This document shows, in pieces, positions 2,653 to 31,744 of a stretch of 60,259 nt of DNA. Under the pieces are notes generated by a model, which was not told the DNA's origin, ran no database searches, and saw nothing but the letters and a program-made list of their open reading frames with translations. Numbering within the stretch: position 1 is the stretch's first letter; every line of letters begins with the position of its first letter. This stretch comes from an uncultured Bacteroidales bacterium (GTDB taxonomy: Bacteria; Bacteroidota; Bacteroidia; Bacteroidales; JAIPAH01). The stretch lies in assembly GCA_964465045.1 (NCBI GenBank), contig CAYXJS010000002.1, positions 1-60,259 of the forward strand. The letters run 5' to 3'. Made by a program: the position numbers and the translations under genes.

Positions 2653-4125
2653 TTAATGGTCGTGATTGTGTGAAGGTAAATTCCCCGACATAGAGGACAG
2701 CTTTAGGTTATATGCGCCCTCGGTTACCAGTATATCGCCGGACTGCAAGCCTTGTATTATCACCATCTGGTCACGGTTTTCCTGCCCGGTAACCACATCT
2801 CTTTTTTCAAAACTTTCGCCACCGGTCATCACATATACATAATAGTTGCCTTCGGCTTCCATTAAAGCTGTTTTGGGGATGACGATTTGTTCTGTTTTGG
2901 TGGGTAGCGAAAAATAGATTTCTGCATAGGCACCGGGTAAAACGCCGGAGATATCCTCTAAAGGCACAGAGGCTGAAGCATAACCCGAATTAAGGGATTT
3001 TGAAAGAATCATCTTGTCGGGATCGGTTTGAATTTTTTCTGATCGGAAACCCTGCCCGGGAATATGAAACTGAAAGCTTGAGACATCTTTCATTTCAGGA
3101 TAATAGTGTTGTGGGATGTCTGCTTTTATAACGTAATCTTCCTCCGGAATAACAGTGCATAGTAAAGCACCTGTACTTATATGCTCGCCGTTCTCTATAT
3201 TGATATTCCCGATATATCCGGCTGCTGGAGCGGTGATGTTAACACCGTGTGGTGAATTCCCTGAGGCCAGTGCTTCATAGTTTTCCGATGCTAATTCCTT
3301 CGCTAATTTTGCATCCAGCAATTCATTTTCAGATATGATATCTTCTTTATATAGATAATCCGCTCTCTTGTATTCTTCTTTTGCATGCTCAAGGTTTTTC
3401 CGGGCTTTCCGAAGTGCCGTACTGTGGTTTTCAGGTGTGTTTTCTGATGGAATCACAGTAAAGAGTATTTCTCCCTTATTGACTTGCTTTCCTTCCATTA
3501 AGTCCGGAATCCTGAAATTTGCCTTGCCGCGGATGTTGGCTGTAACTTTATTTACGGAACCGGGAGCTAATGCTATTTTTCCGGAAGTTTTTAATGTTGC
3601 GCTAAAAGGTTCCAAATCAAGGACTTTTGCACCCATCCCGGATTCCCAGGCTGCTTCTTTAGTAAATACAATATCATCATTGTGCTGATGAAGTTCATTT
3701 GATGCAGTATTCTTTCTTTTTTTGATTTCATAAAGCTGTCCGTTAATCCGGAATCGCATCCCATGCAAATGGGTTTTATCGTAATCTGCTTTTATCCGGG
3801 CAGAATAAATGCCTGATCTTACAGGCTCCATGGTCGTTTTTGTATTTCTGGAAGAACCTTCAATAAACCATTCCGGTGAATCAACCACAACAGGTGTGTA
3901 GTTTTGTAAATCTGTCAGATGAGCTGTAATTACATATTCTTCACTGTGATAATGCACTTCTGCGAAAAGCTCATAACCGTTTTGAAACTGAAGAATGTTT
4001 TGTTCTTTGTGCCGGTTATCCTGAGATTCTGATTCATGGATGGCTGTTTCTTTTTTTGCCGGGGTGCAGCCCCATAGCATAACAAATGCCAGCAGGCTTG
4101 TGACTATACCAAATTTCATAAACAT
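2653..4125 (-). CDS. Efflux RND periplasmic adaptor (membrane fusion protein, CzcB/CusB-like), probable lipoprotein
   Basis: ORF-track protein with signal peptide and lipobox-like LWGC. Central lipoyl/hairpin region (coiled ...LEHAKEEYKRADYLYKEDIISENELLDAKLAKE...), beta-barrel region, and His-rich tail SHNHDH. Position 4128 is a TTG; the first ATG is at 4125. Directly upstream of the RND pump. Confidence 0.85.
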   Translation of the reverse strand: MFMKFGIVTSLLAFVMLWGCTPAKKETAIHESESQDNRHKEQNILQFQNGYELFAEVHYHSEEYVITAHLTDLQNYTPVVVDSPEWFIEGSSRNTKTTMEPVRSGIYSARIKADYDKTHLHGMRFRINGQLYEIKKRKNTASNELHQHNDDIVFTKEAAWESGMGAKVLDLEPFSATLKTSGKIALAPGSVNKVTANIRGKANFRIPDLMEGKQVNKGEILFTVIPSENTPENHSTALRKARKNLEHAKEEYKRADYLYKEDIISENELLDAKLAKELASENYEALASGNSPHGVNITAPAAGYIGNINIENGEHISTGALLCTVIPEEDYVIKADIPQHYYPEMKDVSSFQFHIPGQGFRSEKIQTDPDKMILSKSLNSGYASASVPLEDISGVLPGAYAEIYFSLPTKTEQIVIPKTALMEAEGNYYVYVMTGGESFEKRDVVTGQENRDQMVIIQGLQSGDILVTEGAYNLKLSSMSGNLPSHNHDH

Positions 4126-4675: not shown

Positions 4676-5575
4676 ATGACACAAAAACCTACACTTTTGA
4701 TTTTAGCTGCCGGAATGGGCAGCCGTTATGGCGGACTTAAACAACTTGATGCTGTCGGCCCTTCCGGAGAAGCTATTATTGATTATTCGATCTACGACGC
4801 GATTCGGGCCGGCTTCGGGAAGGTGGTTTTTTTAATCCGGAAAGATTTGGAAGCGGCCTTTAAAGAGCGTTTCAGCAAACTGGTGGAAGGCAAAATTGAC
4901 TATGACTTTGCCTATCAGGAATTGGATATGCTGCCGGAAGGCTACAAAGTTCCGGCTGACCGCAGGAAACCCTGGGGCACAGGACATGCAGTGTGGTGCG
5001 CCCGCAATCATATTGACGGACCTTTTGCCGTGATTAATGCCGATGACTTTTATGGCAGTGATGCCTATAAAACCCTTGCCAAAGCAATGGCAGAAAATAC
5101 CCGCGATCATTACATGGTAGCTTATTATCTGAAAAATACCTTATCACGACATGGTCATGTTTCGCGCGGGGTTTGCTCACTGGATGAGAACCACAATCTG
5201 AAAGATGTAGTGGAACATACTCAGATTTACCGCAAAGGCGATGATATTGTTTATGAACAAGACGGAGAAACAAGAACGCTGAACCCTGAATTGCCGGTAA
5301 GCATGAACTTCTGGGGATTTATGCCGAGCTATTTCGATTGGTTGGATAAGTATTTTACAGCATTTTTAGATAAGCATATCGATGAGCCCAGGAGCGAATA
5401 CTTTATTCCTACAGTGGTGAATCATCTGATTAATAGTGGAGAAGAACGTGTAAAAGTACTTACTTCTGATGCGCAGTGGTTTGGGGTAACATACCGCGAA
5501 GATAAAGAAGCAGTAATGCAGCGTGTTAAGGAGCTGGTAAATCAAGGGGTTTATCCTGCCAATTTGTATACATGA
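4676..5575 (+). CDS. Sugar-phosphate nucleotidyltransferase family protein
   Basis: N-terminal LILAAGMGSRYGGLKQLD matches the NTP-transferase G-rich loop (LxxAGGxGxRxxxxK). The track ORF begins at a GTG at 4580. I prefer ATG 4676 (MTQKPTLLILAAG...) because the preceding 32 codons are low-quality sequence. Confidence 0.8.
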   Translation: MTQKPTLLILAAGMGSRYGGLKQLDAVGPSGEAIIDYSIYDAIRAGFGKVVFLIRKDLEAAFKERFSKLVEGKIDYDFAYQELDMLPEGYKVPADRRKPWGTGHAVWCARNHIDGPFAVINADDFYGSDAYKTLAKAMAENTRDHYMVAYYLKNTLSRHGHVSRGVCSLDENHNLKDVVEHTQIYRKGDDIVYEQDGETRTLNPELPVSMNFWGFMPSYFDWLDKYFTAFLDKHIDEPRSEYFIPTVVNHLINSGEERVKVLTSDAQWFGVTYREDKEAVMQRVKELVNQGVYPANLYT

Positions 5576-13838: not shown

Positions 13839-14534
13839 TTAACAACTATTTTGATGATCATCATCCAATAGTTCAGGTCGCCGGTTTTGAGTGCGCTCAA
13901 CAGCTTTTTTGTATCGCCACTCCTGTATCTTGGCTTCATGACCGGAAAGTAGGATTTCCGGTACTTTCATTCCGCGGAAATCGGCCGGCCGGGTATATAC
14001 CGGCGGAGATATCAGGTTATCCTGAAAGCTGTCTGATAAAGCAGACGTTTCATCATTTAGCACTCCGGGAATTAATCTTACAACACTGTCAACGATAACA
14101 GCGGCGGCCAGCTCTCCTCCTGATAATACATAATTTCCGATGGAAATCTCCCGGGTGATGTATTTTTCGCGAATGCGCTCGTCAATGCCTTTATAGTGTC
14201 CGCACAAAATAATGATGTTATTCAAAGTAGATAACATGTTTGCTTCCTGTTGGTTATGCAGCAAGCCATCTGGCGCAGTGTAAATAATTTCATCATAATT
14301 TCTTTCTTTTTGCAGACTTTCGATGCATCGGGATACAGGTTCTATCATCATGACCATACCGGCACCTCCCCCGTAAGGATAATCGTCTACTTTACGGTGT
14401 TTGTTAGTACTGTAATCACGGATGTCATGAAGGTAAATGCCGGCTAATTGCCTTTGGCGCGCCCTTTTAATAATCGAATGAGCAAAAGGCCCGTCAAACA
14501 TCTCCGGAAAAAGCGTCAGGATATCAATGCGCAT
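13839..14534 (-). CDS. trmD: tRNA (guanine37-N1)-methyltransferase
   Basis: [17 protein letters not shown]...[13 protein letters not shown]...[14 protein letters not shown]...[16 protein letters not shown]... are canonical TrmD motifs, and it is adjacent to rplS as in many bacteria. Confidence 0.95.
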
Positions 14535-14621
14535 ATGACAAATTTTTTGCGAATTTACGAATTCTGCAAAGCTAAAATAATGGCTGTCTGTGAACTTTTA
14601 CTTAATTTTACCCGTTTTAAT

Positions 14622-14938
14622 TAAGTTTGTAAGTTTCTAAGTTTATAAGTTATTATGTTCTTAAGTTCTTAAGTTGCTATGTTTGATAGGCTCTTACGTG
14701 TTTAAGTGCATATGTGTTCAGGTGTTTACATGCATAGGTAATCAAGTGTTTATGTAAAGTTGGCATTAGGCAGTTGGCAGTTGGCAATGAAAAATTTCGG
14801 GTTTCGGGTTTCGGATTTCGGACTTAGGGTTGAAAGCTCCAAAGCGGATTAACCATCCCGATAGCTATCAGGAACAAATCAACGAATATACGAATCACAA
14901 ATAAACAAATCAGCGAATCACGAATTAACGAAAAGATT
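14622..14938 (+). repeat. Composite intergenic element, copy A: collinear blocks of degenerate 7-8-bp tandem repeats ending at the ATG of the S8 peptidase gene
   Basis: Eight 8-bp units TAAGTTTG/TAAGTTTC/TAAGTTTA/TAAGTTAT/TATGTTCT/TAAGTTCT/TAAGTTGC/TATGTTTG (14622-14685), then a GTGTTTAA-type 8-mer block. Next come GCAGTTG x3, TTTCGGG-type 7-mers x5, a spacer, and CGAATNAN 8-mers up to 14938. Same block order as the reverse complement of 30320-30538. A 42-nt core (14756-14797) matches 30433-30474 at 38/42 positions, including a 21-nt exact run gcagttggcaatgaaaaattt. Confidence 0.85.
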
Positions 14939-16588
14939 ATGAAGAAGAAAATACCTGTATTGTTTGTATTGATGCTCTTTCTTGCTTCGGCCATGTCGCA
15001 AGAAGCGCATACGTACATTGTAAAATTGGCTGACAAGGAAAGTTCGCCATACAAAATTGAAAACCCTGAAGCTTATCTGAGTCAGAAAGCGCTTGAGCGG
15101 CGGGAAAAACAAGGAATTGCCATTGATTACACCGATTTACCTGTAAGTCCGGCATATGTTGAGCAGGTTAAAGCAGAAGGATATCGCATTACTCACCGCA
15201 TCAAGTGGTTGAATACCATCATTGTTAAAGGAAACGCAAGCGAACCCCTCGAAGCGCTTCCTTTTGTAAAAGAGGTGAAAACGGTTATGCAATCGGAAAG
15301 AAAAACGGAAAAGCCATTTTTTGAATCTGAGTCGGAAGACTTCAGACCTTTATCTAAAACGAAAAACACACAGCGTGAAGATGATGTGTATGATTATGGG
15401 GAAGCATACAACCAGATAGAAATGCTCAACGGGCATCTTGTGCATAATGAAGGTTATGATGGTGAGGGAATGACTATTGCAGTGTTAGATGCGGGTTATC
15501 AGAATGCAGATGAAATGGATGCATTCGATAGCCTTTGGATGAATGATCGCATCCTGGGAACCGCCAATTTTGTTAATGATGAAGATATTTTCAATAGCAG
15601 CATCAGCTCACACGGAACCAGTGTCTTATCCACAATGGGAGGGAACCTTCCCGGCGAAATTGTAGGCACAGCCCCACAGGCTGAGTATTGGCTGATTCGT
15701 ACCGAAGACGCCTCTGATGAGTACCTGATGGAAGAGTATTTCTGGGTTGATGGCGCTGAATTTGCCGACAGTGTGGGGGCTGATATTATCAACTCTTCCC
15801 TTGGATACACTGAAAATTTTAACGATCCGGACAACGATCATACGTATGAAGACATGGACGGAAACACGACACCCGTGACTATAGGTGCTGACGAAGCAGC
15901 TTCCAAAGGTATTTTGGTTGTGAACAGCGCCGGGAACTCAGGCAGCGGCTCATGGTTTTATATCGGTGCACCGGCCGATGGCGATAGCGTAATGGCTGTT
16001 GGCGCCGTGGATGGCAATGGCAATTATGTTAGCTTCAGTTCAAAAGGACCAACTTACGACGGCCGTATAAAACCCGATGTGTCTGCAAAAGGTTCTTCGG
16101 CTACTGTAGCTTCTGTATGGGGCGGCGTAACATACGCCAGCGGAACTTCTTTTTCTTCGCCGATTATGGCTGGCATGACGGCTTCAATATGGCAGGCGAA
16201 TCCTTCTTTAGGCAACATGGAGCTCATAGAGTTGATTAAAGAACATGGTCACCAGGCTGATGACCCCGACTCACTCCTGGGTTGGGGAATCCCCGACTTT
16301 GGTGCGATGCTTGATGTGATAGGTACGCAGAATGCAGACCTGACCTTGCTTAAGGCTGTAAAAGTGTACCCGAATCCCTTTGGAGAGCAACTGACAATTT
16401 CCTTGTCCCAGCCGGTGGATTTTACGGCTACATTGTCTGCCATGTCAGGTAAGCAGGTTATCCGTAAAACAATACAGCAAAGCAACTATGCCACTTTGTC
16501 TGGTGTTAAGAACTTGCCAGCTGGCATATACTTTCTTAAAATCGAAACATCCGAAGGCGAGGTTGTTCGTAAATTGATTAAGAAGTAA
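14939..16588 (+). CDS. S8 (subtilisin-like) serine peptidase with T9SS C-terminal sorting domain
   Basis: Signal peptide and I9-like propeptide. Catalytic triad contexts IAVLDAGY, HGTSVLSTMGG and SGTSFSSPIMAG. The C-terminus VKVYPNPFGEQLTISL...GIYFLKIETSEGEVVRKLIKK is a Por_Secre_tail-type domain. Confidence 0.92.
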   Translation: MKKKIPVLFVLMLFLASAMSQEAHTYIVKLADKESSPYKIENPEAYLSQKALERREKQGIAIDYTDLPVSPAYVEQVKAEGYRITHRIKWLNTIIVKGNASEPLEALPFVKEVKTVMQSERKTEKPFFESESEDFRPLSKTKNTQREDDVYDYGEAYNQIEMLNGHLVHNEGYDGEGMTIAVLDAGYQNADEMDAFDSLWMNDRILGTANFVNDEDIFNSSISSHGTSVLSTMGGNLPGEIVGTAPQAEYWLIRTEDASDEYLMEEYFWVDGAEFADSVGADIINSSLGYTENFNDPDNDHTYEDMDGNTTPVTIGADEAASKGILVVNSAGNSGSGSWFYIGAPADGDSVMAVGAVDGNGNYVSFSSKGPTYDGRIKPDVSAKGSSATVASVWGGVTYASGTSFSSPIMAGMTASIWQANPSLGNMELIELIKEHGHQADDPDSLLGWGIPDFGAMLDVIGTQNADLTLLKAVKVYPNPFGEQLTISLSQPVDFTATLSAMSGKQVIRKTIQQSNYATLSGVKNLPAGIYFLKIETSEGEVVRKLIKK

Positions 16589-28508: not shown

Positions 28509-29126
28509 TTAATTAGATTTTTCCCATTTTTTCGATTCCTGATTATACCGTTTGAGTTGTTTAGCCGGGTTTCCTGCTACGATAGTGTAGGGGGGAACAT
28601 CCTTCGTGACGACGCTGCCAGCAGCTATCACAGCATGTTTACCTACGGTTACTCCGGCAACGATAACACTGTTGGCTCCAATCCAGACTTCATCTTCTAT
28701 AACAATTTCTTTTGTGGATGTAGGCTGAACACTGATGGGCGTATGAATATCCTCATACCCATGGTTGAGTCCGCTTACAACAATATTTTGCGCAAACATA
28801 ATGTCATTTCCAATTTTGACAGGCCCAATGATCGTATTGCCTAAGCCGATTCGTGTTCGTTCGCCAATCACCACTTCGCCAACACCATTGTTAACCGTGG
28901 AAAAATCCTCAATGGTAGAATCATTGCCAATCGAAAAATAATTCCAGGGCATCACATCCATTCGGGTTCTTCGGCGAATACATACATGCTTTCCTTTTTT
29001 ATGGCGGAAGGGATTCACAAACCACCGAACCCATAAACGGGGACGAGCCTGGTTTCGGGGCATCATCAGGTTTAGCGCCAGCTTTTTAAGCCTTGGATTG
29101 GATTTAAGTTTTTCTTTCAGTCCCAT
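28509..29126 (-). CDS. Hexapeptide-repeat (left-handed beta-helix) acyl/acetyltransferase
   Basis: Hexapeptide rungs [25 protein letters not shown]...[43 protein letters not shown]. Confidence 0.88.
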
Positions 29127-30319
29127 GCTTTCTTTTGTTTTTCGATATTTTGAATAACCCGGTAAATATTATTTACGCTGTTCTCCCAGGTATGACTGCG
29201 AGCCACTTTCAACCTTTCCACTTTATTATGCTCTTTATTATCCAGCGCAGCTATAATTTTTTGTTCAAATTCTACGGCTCCCTCAGCCAGGAAAACAACC
29301 TCGCTAAACAACTTCATCGCCTCTGTTTTCACAGCCACAACCGGTTTTTGTGCTGCCAGATATTCATCAATTTTACGTGGATAATTGCCAATGGTTACAT
29401 CGTTGATTACCTGCGGATTTATAGCCACATCAAAACCATGAAGGTAAGCCGGGAGTTGGTCAAAATCTTTTCTTCCGGTAAATATTACATTCGAAAGTGC
29501 GTGTAGTCTGCTGTTTTTAAACGCTTCATCTTCCGGGCCAACAAACACAAAACTCCACTGTGGATTTCGTTCAGATATGGTTTCCAGCAAAGCCACGTCC
29601 AAACGTAGCGAACTCAGAACCCCGATATATCCTATGACAGGTTTTTTGGTTTTTTCTATTTCGGGGGGGTGTTTTTCAGGTTGTTTTTCGAAAGGTCCGG
29701 TATCCACACCCTGTCCAACATCATAGCTCTCTATATTGTAGCGGCGTGCCAGTGAAGCCAGGTATTCCGAATTGCAAACTACGGCATCGGTCTTTTGCAT
29801 CATGGCTTTTTCAATGCGGGAGCCGTGTTTTCTGAAGTAAGGGGTGGCTATCAGATTATCGCGACTGTAATATATGAATAGCGAAGGTTTTAGCCATTCT
29901 TTCAGATATAAGGTGCGGTATAAATCTCCGTCTTCAAACAAAATAAAATCATTGATATCCAATTCTGAAAGTGCTTTTTGTATGGATTTAGCATACTTTT
30001 TATTATTCTTCTTCAGGATTTTATCAAAAAGCCAACGAAACGGAATTTTACTAACCGACTCTAAGATAACATCCGGTGTGTATACCCAAAGATTATCGTT
30101 TATTTTCTCAAGCGCTTTTTGCCGGCCATTCCGAACAGCTATTCTTCGCTGTACCAACATATCAGAAGCATTTCGCCACTTAGAGAGCCGATCGAGCGGA
30201 TAATTGACATACAGCACGCGGTGCTTTTTAGCAAATTCATAAGCTATATTGACTGCATTTGAGCCAATTTCTGCATGAAAATCCTGTAATCCTGTTATGA
30301 CAATGTCCCGCTTTTTCAT
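29117..30319 (-). CDS. GT-B fold glycosyltransferase (family 1/4-like), paralog of 30539..31744
   Basis: 400 aa. Collinear with the neighbouring 401-aa protein along its whole length ([15 protein letters not shown].../DIICFGLQPWDLEIA...; ...[16 protein letters not shown]/...YPLKIDEYLALGKATV). The C-terminal half resembles GT1/GT4 nucleotide-sugar binding domains. Confidence 0.8.
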
Positions 30320-30538
30320 ATTGGTGATTCGTTGATTCGTTAATTCGTTAATTCATAAAAATAAATTCCAATTCCCAAATTCCAAAAATGCGTATTAATG
30401 CGAATTACGCGAAACTCGAAATTCGGAACTCAAAATTTTTCATTGCCAACTGCTAACTGCTTTTTGCCAACTTTCACCCAAACACATACGCACTTAAAAA
30501 CCCATCAATCCTAAAAACATAGTAACCTACAAACTTGG
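30320..30538 (-). repeat. Composite intergenic element, copy B (inverted relative to copy A), ending at the ATG of glycosyltransferase 29117..30319
   Basis: The reverse complement shows the same block order as 14622-14938: AAGTTTG-type units, tttaagtgcgtatgtgtt (17/18 versus 14701-14718), and aaagttggcaaaaagcagttagcagttggcaatgaaaaattt (38/42 versus 14756-14797). These are followed by TTCG-rich 7-mers and GAATTAAC/GAATCAAC 8-mers running into the start codon. It is the only sizeable non-coding gap inside the glycosyltransferase block. Confidence 0.85.
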
Positions 30539-31744
30539 TTATTTCGTTTCATTTTCAATCATTTCAAGGTAATCATAAATTTTCGCCACAAAATTTTCCC
30601 AGGTATGAGTAGAAGCGTATTCGATACGTTTCTTTTGTTTCTCAGGTGTATCTTCCTTCAAGGCTTTTTCAATGGCATGAACAAACTCTTCTTTGGTAAA
30701 AGGCAGGTAAACATACTCCTTAAAATAATCCATAAAAGTAGTTTTTGTGGCCACTGTAGCTTTACCCAGTGCAAGATACTCATCAATTTTGAGCGGGTAG
30801 TTTACATCCGTTATCGGATTGATGATTTGCGGATTCAGCGCCACATCAAAACCTTTAATATAGCCGGGTAATTCATGCGGTTCTTTTCTTCCCAGAAAGT
30901 ATACATTATCAAGCTTGTGCAGCTCAGAGTTCTGAAAAACCTCATCTTCAGGGCCTACAAGCATGAGACTCCAGCCGGGCCTTTGCTTTGCAATATGCAC
31001 CAGCACCTCTATATCAAGCCGTATTGTAGTCAGCGCTCCCACATACCCGATAATGGGTTTTTGTTTGATGGCGAGCAAATCTTCAGGAACCGGTATTTTT
31101 CCTTTCGTATCATTATACAGTGATAAATCACATCCCTGGCCAATCATATACGCATGCTTGTTGTACTGCTTGCCGTAATTGGCAAAATAATCGCTATTGG
31201 CCACCATCAGGTCCATTTTGCTAATCAGTTTTGGCTCAAGGCGGCTCCCGTGGCGCGCATGATAAGAAACCAGCGTGACTGCATCACGTAAAAGATAAAC
31301 TGAGAACTTAGGCTTTAGCAGTTCTTTAAAATAATATCCTATCAGCATGGAATTATCGTCAAACAATATATAATCCTTAAAGCCCAATTGATTGATGGCG
31401 CGCATGGCTTCCTTAGCAAAGCGTTTATCATTGATTTTGTTTAACGCATCATGAATGAAAGGAACAGGAATCCAGTTAATCGACTCAATAATGGTTTTGG
31501 GTGTAAAAACCCACAAATTATCATTATACTGAAATAAATCCGGCTCTTCGCCCTTAAGCACAGCTTTACGGTTTACCACACGCGGATGATCCGGCTTTTT
31601 GATTAAATCACCCCGGTGCAGGGGAGGGTTTAGAAACAAAACCCGGTTTTTTTTAGCCATTTCAATCGCCGTATATTTCAGCGTAAAAGCAATCTCCAAA
31701 TCCCACGGCTGTAAGCCAAAACAAATGATATCCCGGTTTTCCAT
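30539..31744 (-). CDS. GT-B fold glycosyltransferase (family 1/4-like), paralog of 29117..30319
   Basis: See the paralog entry. Its ATG overlaps the stop of the upstream gene by 1 nt. Confidence 0.8.
   Translation of the reverse strand: MENRDIICFGLQPWDLEIAFTLKYTAIEMAKKNRVLFLNPPLHRGDLIKKPDHPRVVNRKAVLKGEEPDLFQYNDNLWVFTPKTIIESINWIPVPFIHDALNKINDKRFAKEAMRAINQLGFKDYILFDDNSMLIGYYFKELLKPKFSVYLLRDAVTLVSYHARHGSRLEPKLISKMDLMVANSDYFANYGKQYNKHAYMIGQGCDLSLYNDTKGKIPVPEDLLAIKQKPIIGYVGALTTIRLDIEVLVHIAKQRPGWSLMLVGPEDEVFQNSELHKLDNVYFLGRKEPHELPGYIKGFDVALNPQIINPITDVNYPLKIDEYLALGKATVATKTTFMDYFKEYVYLPFTKEEFVHAIEKALKEDTPEKQKKRIEYASTHTWENFVAKIYDYLEMIENETK

Follow-up and report, generated by a model that had tools for sequence, protein, structure and literature searches.

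What are the two tracts of short tandem repeats that stand before protein-coding genes in the window (the whole 60,259-nt stretch from an uncultured Bacteroidales bacterium that was analyzed), and do they act on the genes that they precede? The first tract, copy A, occupies positions 14622-14938 of the forward strand, upstream of an S8 peptidase gene, and the second, copy B, occupies positions 30320-30538 of the reverse strand, between two glycosyltransferase (GT) genes; both are built from the same 7-8-bp blocks in the same order, as an earlier, sequence-only reading of the window had noticed. Our results suggest that both tracts are probably copies of a genus-specific, non-coding, dispersed mosaic repeat, comparable to the bacterial interspersed mosaic elements (BIMEs), BOX elements and short tandemly repeated repetitive (STRR) sequences, which would be selfish or neutral and co-transcribed as a tolerated leader or spacer. 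The element would then have no dedicated job for its neighboring genes, copy A being carried in the S8 peptidase transcript as a long leader and copy B in the glycosyltransferase operon as an intercistronic spacer.

The source of the window is a 3.63-Mb metagenome-assembled genome (MAG; G000) of 507 contigs, which is 87% complete and has a G+C content of 41%. The sequence-only reading knew of two copies and had proposed a BLAST search for more. With copies A and B as queries, matches were found on 66 contigs, the two copies matched each other with E = 3.5e-13 in the whole-genome search, and an iterated nhmmer profile of the core, consisting of the blocks lettered V and W (and F), recovered 61 copies at E < 1e-3, so that this genome holds at least ~60. 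It was found that 59 of the 61 cores lie outside open reading frames (ORFs) and that 21 lie at contig ends; with about a third of its copies there, the element breaks assemblies. Given ~60 intergenic copies, the two tracts look like inserted spacer DNA rather than like a purpose-built promoter.

Motif-based annotation showed that the module order K-V-W-F-H-R-G-C is held in nearly all multi-module copies. The core of ~75 nt is well conserved: three V units (8-mers) precede three W units (7-mers), and the V>W and W>F junctions are conserved as well (consensus TTAaGTGtgTAgGTGttTAtGTGTTTAgGtaAAGTTGGCAgtagGCAatagGCAGTTGGCAATgaaaaATTTCg), with GGCA recurring in a 7-nt register. Optional modules flank it in a fixed order, K upstream and F, H (the hairpin TTTCGCCCCGGTGAAA...TTTCACGGGGTAAAGG), R, G and the A-rich C downstream. 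The alignment of the conserved core shows that this is a composite of common descent, copied as a unit, and not a group of independently slipping microsatellites. Architectures include K with the core only, the core with an inverted w arm (hairpin type, 12 copies) and the core with varied combinations of F, H, R, G and C; (TCTGAYCT)n and (GTCATTNN)n serve as further alternative modules. The W word GCAGTTGGCAAT occurs 36 times in the genome, with ~0.4 occurrences expected, and (GTTGGCA)n is its commonest 7-mer array (27 arrays). Two other hyper-repeated 12-mers of G000, GGGCGGGAATCTA (~40 copies) and AAAAGCGCGCGACGAC (~35 copies), hint at further repeat families.

Both window loci could be compared with orthologous sites in relatives. 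The two GT paralogs are adjacent in all of them, and only the spacer between them varies:

G002 and G006: GT-GT spacer of 17 bp, element absent
G003 and G005: GT-GT spacer of 48-49 bp, element absent
G000: GT-GT spacer of 219 bp, element present
G007 (sister species, 86% amino-acid identity): GT-GT spacer of 333 bp, element present

In G000 copy B occupies this entire spacer, between the TAA at 30541-30539 and the ATG at 30319. The spacer between trmD and the S8 gene is ~100 bp long and without the element in G003 and G005, where trmD also adjoins the orthologous site. G000 retains the promoter-like aacttttacNtaaNtttacc at 14593-14621, and the insert replaces roughly the last 30 nt before the S8 ATG; the ancestral S8 leader (ttaattaaatcaaaatagaattat) was already A-rich, as is module C. 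Comparison of filled and empty sites indicates that both window copies are lineage-specific insertions into intergenic spacers, made after the species split. No target duplication was visible at these sites, which are too diverged for the comparison to be decisive, and no terminal inverted repeats were found, the K and C ends of the mosaic not being complementary. In a presence/absence check at loci chosen from G002, G003 and G005, the G000 contigs mostly end at the corresponding junctions.

The copies have also changed after insertion. Between the orthologous GT copies of G000 and G007, the unit numbers of K, F, R and G differ and a small hairpin replaces part of G; of other orthologous pairs of these two species, the one at C121 is almost unchanged and the one at C47 differs by the whole H-F-R-G segment, which was lost or gained. 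These alignments show that copies diverged as units and entire modules alike were gained and lost. An element on C381 is common to G000 and the more distant G002, which implies that the family was active over the diversification of the genus. The earlier description of a portable, expandable element is thus borne out by the abundance of further copies, the element-free orthologous sites and the varying unit and module numbers between sister species. Two observations concern the assemblies compared. G003 (JASMTJ01) includes contigs that are ~90% identical to G000 at the DNA level (e.g. L107 against C417 and C436), its S8 ortholog shares only 63% protein identity, and the bin, with 7.6% contamination, may be mixed. 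In the sister genome the orthologous elements contain runs of N exactly at the repeat modules (G007:C7 ~29470-29570, L153; and L086 ~3700-3800), which are masked or unresolved there.

Of seven other genomes of the genus, six carry the core, and 33 other families in the order essentially lack it. A GTDB-wide scan with exact patterns gave multiple hits in three Bacteroidales/Bacteroidota MAGs of this genus (Bacteroidales bacterium GSC-VFA-60_REP7, Bacteroidota bacterium Y22_45dBSe2.bin.130 and Bacteroidetes bacterium KhS_metabat.24) and two hits in a Saprospiraceae MAG. The genomes with single hits showed that W-type (CAGTTGG)n arrays, either singly or in inverted pairs, are present in the intergenic DNA of many Bacteroidota (e.g. 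Mesonia, Salegentibacter, Gelidibacter, Winogradskyella, Wocania, Mucilaginibacter, Flavisolibacter and Saprospiraceae). As judged by this distribution, the repeat words are old and widespread, and the ordered composite is specific to the genus. No match to the element was found in the phage records searched. The only plasmid matches were K-like (TAAGTTTG)n arrays on Piscirickettsia salmonis plasmids (NZ_CP039221.1, NZ_CP039241.1, NZ_CP039235.1 and NZ_CP039228.1), at 82.5% identity to the first 63 nt of copy A and in 5-13 places per plasmid; these are probably convergent.

The modules of the two window copies and their flanking genes are as follows, with the gene identities that the sequence-only reading had given (TrmD, an S8 peptidase with a type IX secretion system (T9SS) tail and two GT4 paralogs) confirmed:

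13839..14534, reverse strand: trmD (tRNA m1G37 methyltransferase), divergent neighbor of copy A (Pfam PF01746, E = 3.6e-59)
14593..14621, forward strand: ancestral promoter-like or leader stretch aacttttacttaattttacccgttttaat, directly upstream of the insert, aligning with aaacttttacgtaaatttacctgttcattaat in the element-free G003 and G005 spacers
14622..14685, forward strand: copy A module K, 8 units of TANGTTNN
14698..14757, forward strand: copy A module V, 8-mers GTGTTTAA / GTGCATAN, within the conserved core profile
14758..14790, forward strand: copy A module W, (A)GTTGGCA heptamers, with GGCAATGA at the end
14794..14831, forward strand: copy A module F, TTTCGGG-type heptamers
14832..14872, forward strand: copy A non-repeat linker of 41 nt with the small palindrome cccgatagctatcagg
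14873..14932, forward strand: copy A module C, A-rich 8-mers CGAATNAN / CAAATNAN, ending 6 nt short of the ATG
14939..16588, forward strand: S8 peptidase gene with T9SS C-terminal sorting domain (PF00082 and PF18962), whose orthologs align from residue 1
30539..31744, reverse strand: upstream GT4 glycosyltransferase paralog, its stop codon directly abutting copy B
30510..30537, reverse strand: copy B module K, ~3 units
30440..30500, reverse strand: copy B modules V and W, the conserved core (nhmmer core match 30502-30415, E = 6.6e-16)
30363..30439, reverse strand: copy B modules F (TTTYGAG/TTCCGAA), R (CGCGTAATTCGCATTAATACGC) and G (TTGGAATTTGGGAATTGGAATTT)
30320..30356, reverse strand: copy B module C (GAATTAACGAATTAACGAATCAACGAATCACCAAT), continuous into the ATG
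29117..30319, reverse strand: downstream GT4 glycosyltransferase paralog

A MAFFT alignment of copy A and the reverse-complemented copy B gave 71% column identity with the block order kept; read in the gene direction, copy B runs K, V, W, F, then R (CGCGTAATTCGCATTAATACGC) and G (TTGGAATTTGGGA...), then C. Tandem Repeats Finder reported tandem units of ~7 nt, with periods 7 and 8, in both copies, those of copy A being period 8 at 14621-14675, period 24 (3x8) at 14698-14752, period 7 at 14758-14786 and 14795-14821, and period 8 at 14873-14925. The three shared anchors described earlier were all recovered (tttaagtgc[a/g]tatgtgtt, the exact 21-mer gcagttggcaatgaaaaattt and cgaattaacgaa), and the 42-nt core shared by the two copies is likewise present, but with 36 identities on recount instead of 38. 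Both copies had been said to end exactly at a start codon, which is correct for copy B, running into the ATG at 30319, but not for copy A, whose last unit stops at 14932 and leaves 6 nt to the ATG at 14939. The linker palindrome cccgatagctatcagg of copy A serves in other copies as the loop motif of hairpin module H, and the linker motif CCGATAGCTATCGG is also found on C417 and C387.

The sequence-only reading further held that the element is oriented with respect to the gene it precedes, and proposed to test whether copies always abut start codons. Neither rule extends to the family. Gene context could be assigned to cores away from contig ends as follows:

between co-directional genes, sense: 17 copies
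between co-directional genes, antisense: 11 copies
between divergent genes: 5 copies
between convergent genes: 5 copies

The 3' side of the core thus faces a start codon ~22 times and a stop codon ~16 times, a bias that is not significant. The G end of the copy on C436 abuts the stop codon of an antisense gene, and on C417 it is the reverse complement of K that runs into an ATG, counter to a gene-oriented rule. The C tails of long copies end 0-16 nt from an ATG. The two core matches that had scored as intragenic are a single W-loop-w hairpin, in frame in hypF (G000 C36:15116-15218), where ~50 residues (..DSWQLAVGNWQ..FANYFLPTANL..) are added to the linker that joins the second zinc finger to the YrdC-like domain. 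This linker has ~64 residues here vs ~11 in canonical HypF, and the insert is kept in the G006 ortholog (C86 ~5250-5330, L166) with a loop that is 21 nt (7 codons) shorter. The genes downstream of family copies are functionally unrelated. Replication-strand polarity, estimated from flanking GC skew, gave no signal (12 of 33 positive, p = 0.16) on contigs that are too short for this to be decisive.

These positions bear on the function first proposed for the element, a portable promoter and leader cassette, in which K would give multiple -7 boxes, the transcript would run through V-W-F to C, and the C tail would be a translation-initiation leader. Bayley et al., in 2000, reportedly defined the Bacteroidota sigma-A promoter by a -7 TAnnTTTG consensus and a -33 TTTG that lies ~19-21 nt upstream of it. 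Module K had been described as an array of perfect or near-perfect -7 boxes; two of its eight units in copy A do match TAnnTTTG, but the others do not, and family-wide the match holds for 22 of 92 units; the general pattern of K units is TA-N-GTT-(T>A)-N. The cassette is favored by these matches, by the finding that both window copies and ~11 of 14 long copies face a start codon 0-16 nt from the C tail, and by the consideration that an insert amid a 20-gene operon must not be polar. However, the -7 G falls on unit position 8, which is not conserved and is a G in only 30% of units, and no TTTG-N18-22-TAnnTTTG pair occurs in copy A or B, a consequence of the 8-bp phasing of K. Scans for sigma-70-type promoters yielded nothing meaningful. 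K or C is missing from many copies, the core orientation of ~22:16 is near random, with copies between convergent genes and inside hypF, and the S8 gene still has upstream of the insert its ancestral promoter-like stretch at 14593..14621, which may itself function as a promoter. We therefore consider the cassette unlikely, and the proposal found no support in its general form; K may still contribute to transcription, and the C tail may serve as a leader in translation.

A structured cis-regulatory RNA, small RNA or terminator/attenuator was a further candidate, and a structured 5' UTR had been suggested as well. Some family members do carry a strong H hairpin or W-loop-w hairpins, but copies A and B have no H stem or inverted arm, copy A keeping only the H loop palindrome. 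RNA folding of copy A was worse than that of all 100 shuffles (z = +2.26) and that of copy B no better than chance (z = -0.29); across 25 elements the mean z was -0.5 in the sense and 0.0 in the antisense direction, and only the copies bearing hairpin H stood out. The sense strand from K through G is G/T-rich and C-poor, and the antisense RNA is essentially unstructured. No intrinsic terminator was found on the gene strand of copy B; a terminator-like match near this copy was rejected because it lies on the wrong strand and inside a coding region. A scan of the window with the Rfam 15 covariance models at the gathering score placed no family at either copy. The only Rfam match in the window was a cobalamin riboswitch (RF00174, 54306-54502, forward strand, 70.8 bits). 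A role as structured RNA thus appears highly improbable for the two window copies.

The absence of a conventional leader before the two genes had been presented as a replacement of any normal ribosome-binding region. Bacteroidota initiate translation without a Shine-Dalgarno sequence, and low structure near the start codon and A at -3 and -6 are favorable (PMC6847099). Both copies place an A at -3 and -6 of the start codon; with this and the low structure, replacement of the ribosome-binding site would be harmless here. We infer that the element is tolerated because it contains no terminator, forms no more RNA structure than chance and ends in a C tail that resembles A-rich non-Shine-Dalgarno leaders.

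Array slippage might also toggle the S8 peptidase and the downstream polysaccharide genes as a phase-variation switch. Tandem repeats beside genes for a secreted protease and surface polysaccharide would suit such a role, and unit numbers differ between sister species, so that the expansion and contraction proposed earlier has support over that time scale. Within the population no slippage polymorphism was seen: contigs from four metagenome runs (one study) span copies A and B with zero indels, although rare variants can be hidden in contigs. In the same four runs k-mer depth rose 5-10-fold over K and W, as these are multi-copy words. The units within the arrays are degenerate, which would make them poor slippage substrates, and the same element stands beside dozens of unrelated genes. 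We regard phase variation by these arrays as very unlikely.

The words of the mosaic are shared with two other kinds of element in this genus. The first is a miniature inverted-repeat transposable element (MITE) of ~150 bp, with inverted repeats (A/T)TGAGTYCRGTTTAA ... TTTAGACCAGACTCAT and K arrays of 3-5 units beside the left inverted repeat; G000 contains 22 clean inverted-repeat pairs 135-157 bp apart and ~50 left ends. Examples of the MITE in G000 are:

C14:21152-21330
C20:14265-14440
C113:4048-4230

The MITE with TGAGTYCRGTTTAA is separate from the mosaic, which lacks terminal inverted repeats, and only the K array is common to them; the mosaics on C86, C65, C180 and C125 begin with the MITE inverted repeat. 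As an autonomous insertion sequence with these inverted repeats, the sole candidate pair (C5, 1.2 kb apart) was rejected, as it encloses ordinary genes and no transposase; the draft assembly yielded no autonomous partner of the MITE.

The second consists of cassettes around genes of PF05635 (23S-rRNA intervening sequence (IVS) protein / Avd-like), a four-helix-bundle (4HB) family. In G000, each of the four confident PF05635 genes lies between inverted arms made of such words:

C417:1561-1878, arms W..w
C160:388-693, arms V..v
C1:65511-65810, arms C-like AATCACAAAT
C13:24849-25127, arms of TTGAGTAA type

Among 16 single-gene PF05635 loci in sister genomes (L173-L190), 12 carry inverted arms on their flanks with a score of at least 16.5, as do all four genes of G000; this score is reached by none of 300 control ORFs of 95-160 aa (two of which reach 14). 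The arm words include K, V, W, G, C, TCTGAYCT, GTCATT and others, and the word differs between cassettes. The module repertoire of the mosaic is, by these shared words, the arm repertoire of hairpin elements and 4HB cassettes. Neither window copy has an ORF or an inverted partner arm. Two further PF05635 loci differ in arrangement. Another Bacteroidetes MAG (JAJRUH01) has a PF05635 gene between ABC-transporter ATPase and permease genes (L084:5170-5820, JAJRUH010000017.1), flanked by direct, not inverted, (CAGTTGG)n arrays plus ~40 nt of leader, which looks like cassette integration by recombination between arrays. In G000, a weak PF05635 (Avd-like) ORF at C254:2165-2431 is followed directly by a reverse-transcriptase-like ORF, the locus probably being a diversity-generating retroelement. 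Our literature search found no paper directly on PF05635 together with repeats in Bacteroidetes.

One tentative extension of these findings, which we think doubtful but worth stating, is that the mosaic is an ordered concatenation of arm words from one selfish superfamily, whose cargo or autonomous form would be the hairpin-enclosed PF05635 cassette. If this is true, the Bacteroidota heptamer arrays, and by extension those of the TAACTGA/STRR type, would share one origin with the hypF hairpin inserts and the 4HB cassettes, and they would have a common mobility or processing, e.g. hairpin-targeted insertion followed by RNase III processing. The one-armed mosaics of the window would then be propagated half-structures that were co-opted as non-Shine-Dalgarno leaders.

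The same word sharing can also be read as a sign of a binding-site array for a genus-specific DNA- or RNA-binding protein (a candidate of four-helix-bundle or cold-shock/S1 type with a ~7-nt footprint), with a regulon or a nucleoid- or RNA-organizing role. The conserved core sequence with GGCA in a 7-nt register and the presence of the same words around PF05635 genes would agree with this, and for TAACTGA repeats that lie shortly before start codons, post-transcriptional binders have been proposed (MacGregor 2015, PMC4679880). However, the element has no set position or orientation with respect to promoters or start codons, orthologous copies differ greatly in module content, and no common function links the downstream genes. 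Altogether, such an array seems to us quite unlikely.

Dispersed heptamer arrays beside start and stop codons, including those of Bacteroidetes and spacers with multiple heptamers, have already been described but not explained (PMC4679880, PMC4692102). They include the TAACTGA direct repeats of Beggiatoaceae, Cyanobacteria and Bacteroidetes, which in 'Maribeggiatoa' and Flexibacter litoralis lie shortly before start codons (MacGregor 2015, PMC4679880), the GGGNATC repeats of Xanthomonas and Nostoc (Rehm et al. 2015, PMC4692102) and, as summarized in PMC4679880, the long simple sequence repeats (LSSRs) of Mrazek et al. 2007. Like these arrays, the present element has tandem units of 7 nt (here 7-8 nt), dozens of sites per genome that are almost only intergenic, often directly after stop or before start codons, several unit types per spacer and whole-unit copy-number changes between species (G000 vs G007). 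Its W unit, read as CAGTTGG, shares CAGTT with TCAGTTA, the reverse complement of TAACTGA, and the C tails of long mosaic copies likewise sit just upstream of start codons. Unlike the published arrays, which are independent, pure and of a single word, those of the mosaic are short, degenerate and in fixed order, with conserved junctions, a ~75-nt core copied as a unit and 8-mers mixed with 7-mers. The STRR heptamers of heterocystous cyanobacteria were reportedly described by Mazel et al. in 1990.

Escherichia coli BIME units are palindromic REP sequences linked to RAYT transposases, and the pneumococcal BOX element has the structure boxA-boxB(n)-boxC and forms stable hairpins. The mosaic resembles both in its ordered modular short motifs, variable module number, tens to hundreds of intergenic copies and lack of coding capacity; BIME and BOX elements are co-transcribed with neighboring genes, as the mosaic would be here. 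Unlike them, copies A and B are non-palindromic, lack inverted arms and yield RNA no more structured than shuffles, and there is no sequence similarity to either; no link to a RAYT was found, although no search aimed at one was made. The ORF-bearing 23S rRNA IVS of Coxiella is a selfish insert that is enclosed by a stem and excised by RNase III (Warrier et al. 2016, PMC4990558). The PF05635 genes of this genus are similarly enclosed by inverted arms of mosaic words (K, V, W, G, C and others), whereas copies A and B have neither ORF nor inverted partner and lie outside rRNA. The W-loop-w member that is in frame in the hypF linker and kept in two species recalls the Rickettsia palindromic elements (RPEs); it differs from these as a single in-frame case of unrelated sequence in a family otherwise excluded from ORFs.

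Several points weigh against our view of the tracts as tolerated copies of a dispersed repeat. Some perfect -7-like boxes do occur in K arrays, and both co-transcription and the lack of a promoter effect are what we infer from sequence. Among the long copies with a C tail, the sense orientation is the commoner one, ~11 vs 3; the difference is not significant, but it could reflect selection on orientation or a function of the tail as leader. No hallmarks of transposition and no mobilizing enzyme were found for the mosaic form, and gene context was derived from crude longest-ORF calls on a fragmented MAG that is 87% complete. Spread of the mosaic was probably by recombination between shared words or by the machinery that moves the hairpin and 4HB elements.

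What is new here, beyond the arrays already described, is the fixed-order composite with its conserved core, the genus-wide census and the empty orthologous sites, together with a quantitative word link to the arms of PF05635 cassettes, the MITE and the in-frame hypF insert. A single copy viewed alone would wrongly suggest gene-specific regulation. Insertion amid a polysaccharide operon or into the leader of a secreted protease leaves both downstream reading frames intact, and such tolerance is plausible because the phylum initiates translation without Shine-Dalgarno sequences. Altogether, our results suggest that this uncultured Bacteroidales genus carries a BIME/BOX-like composite built of STRR-like words, and the sharing of these words with 4HB cassette arms, the MITE and the hypF insert would offer a handle on the origin and movement of bacterial heptamer repeats.

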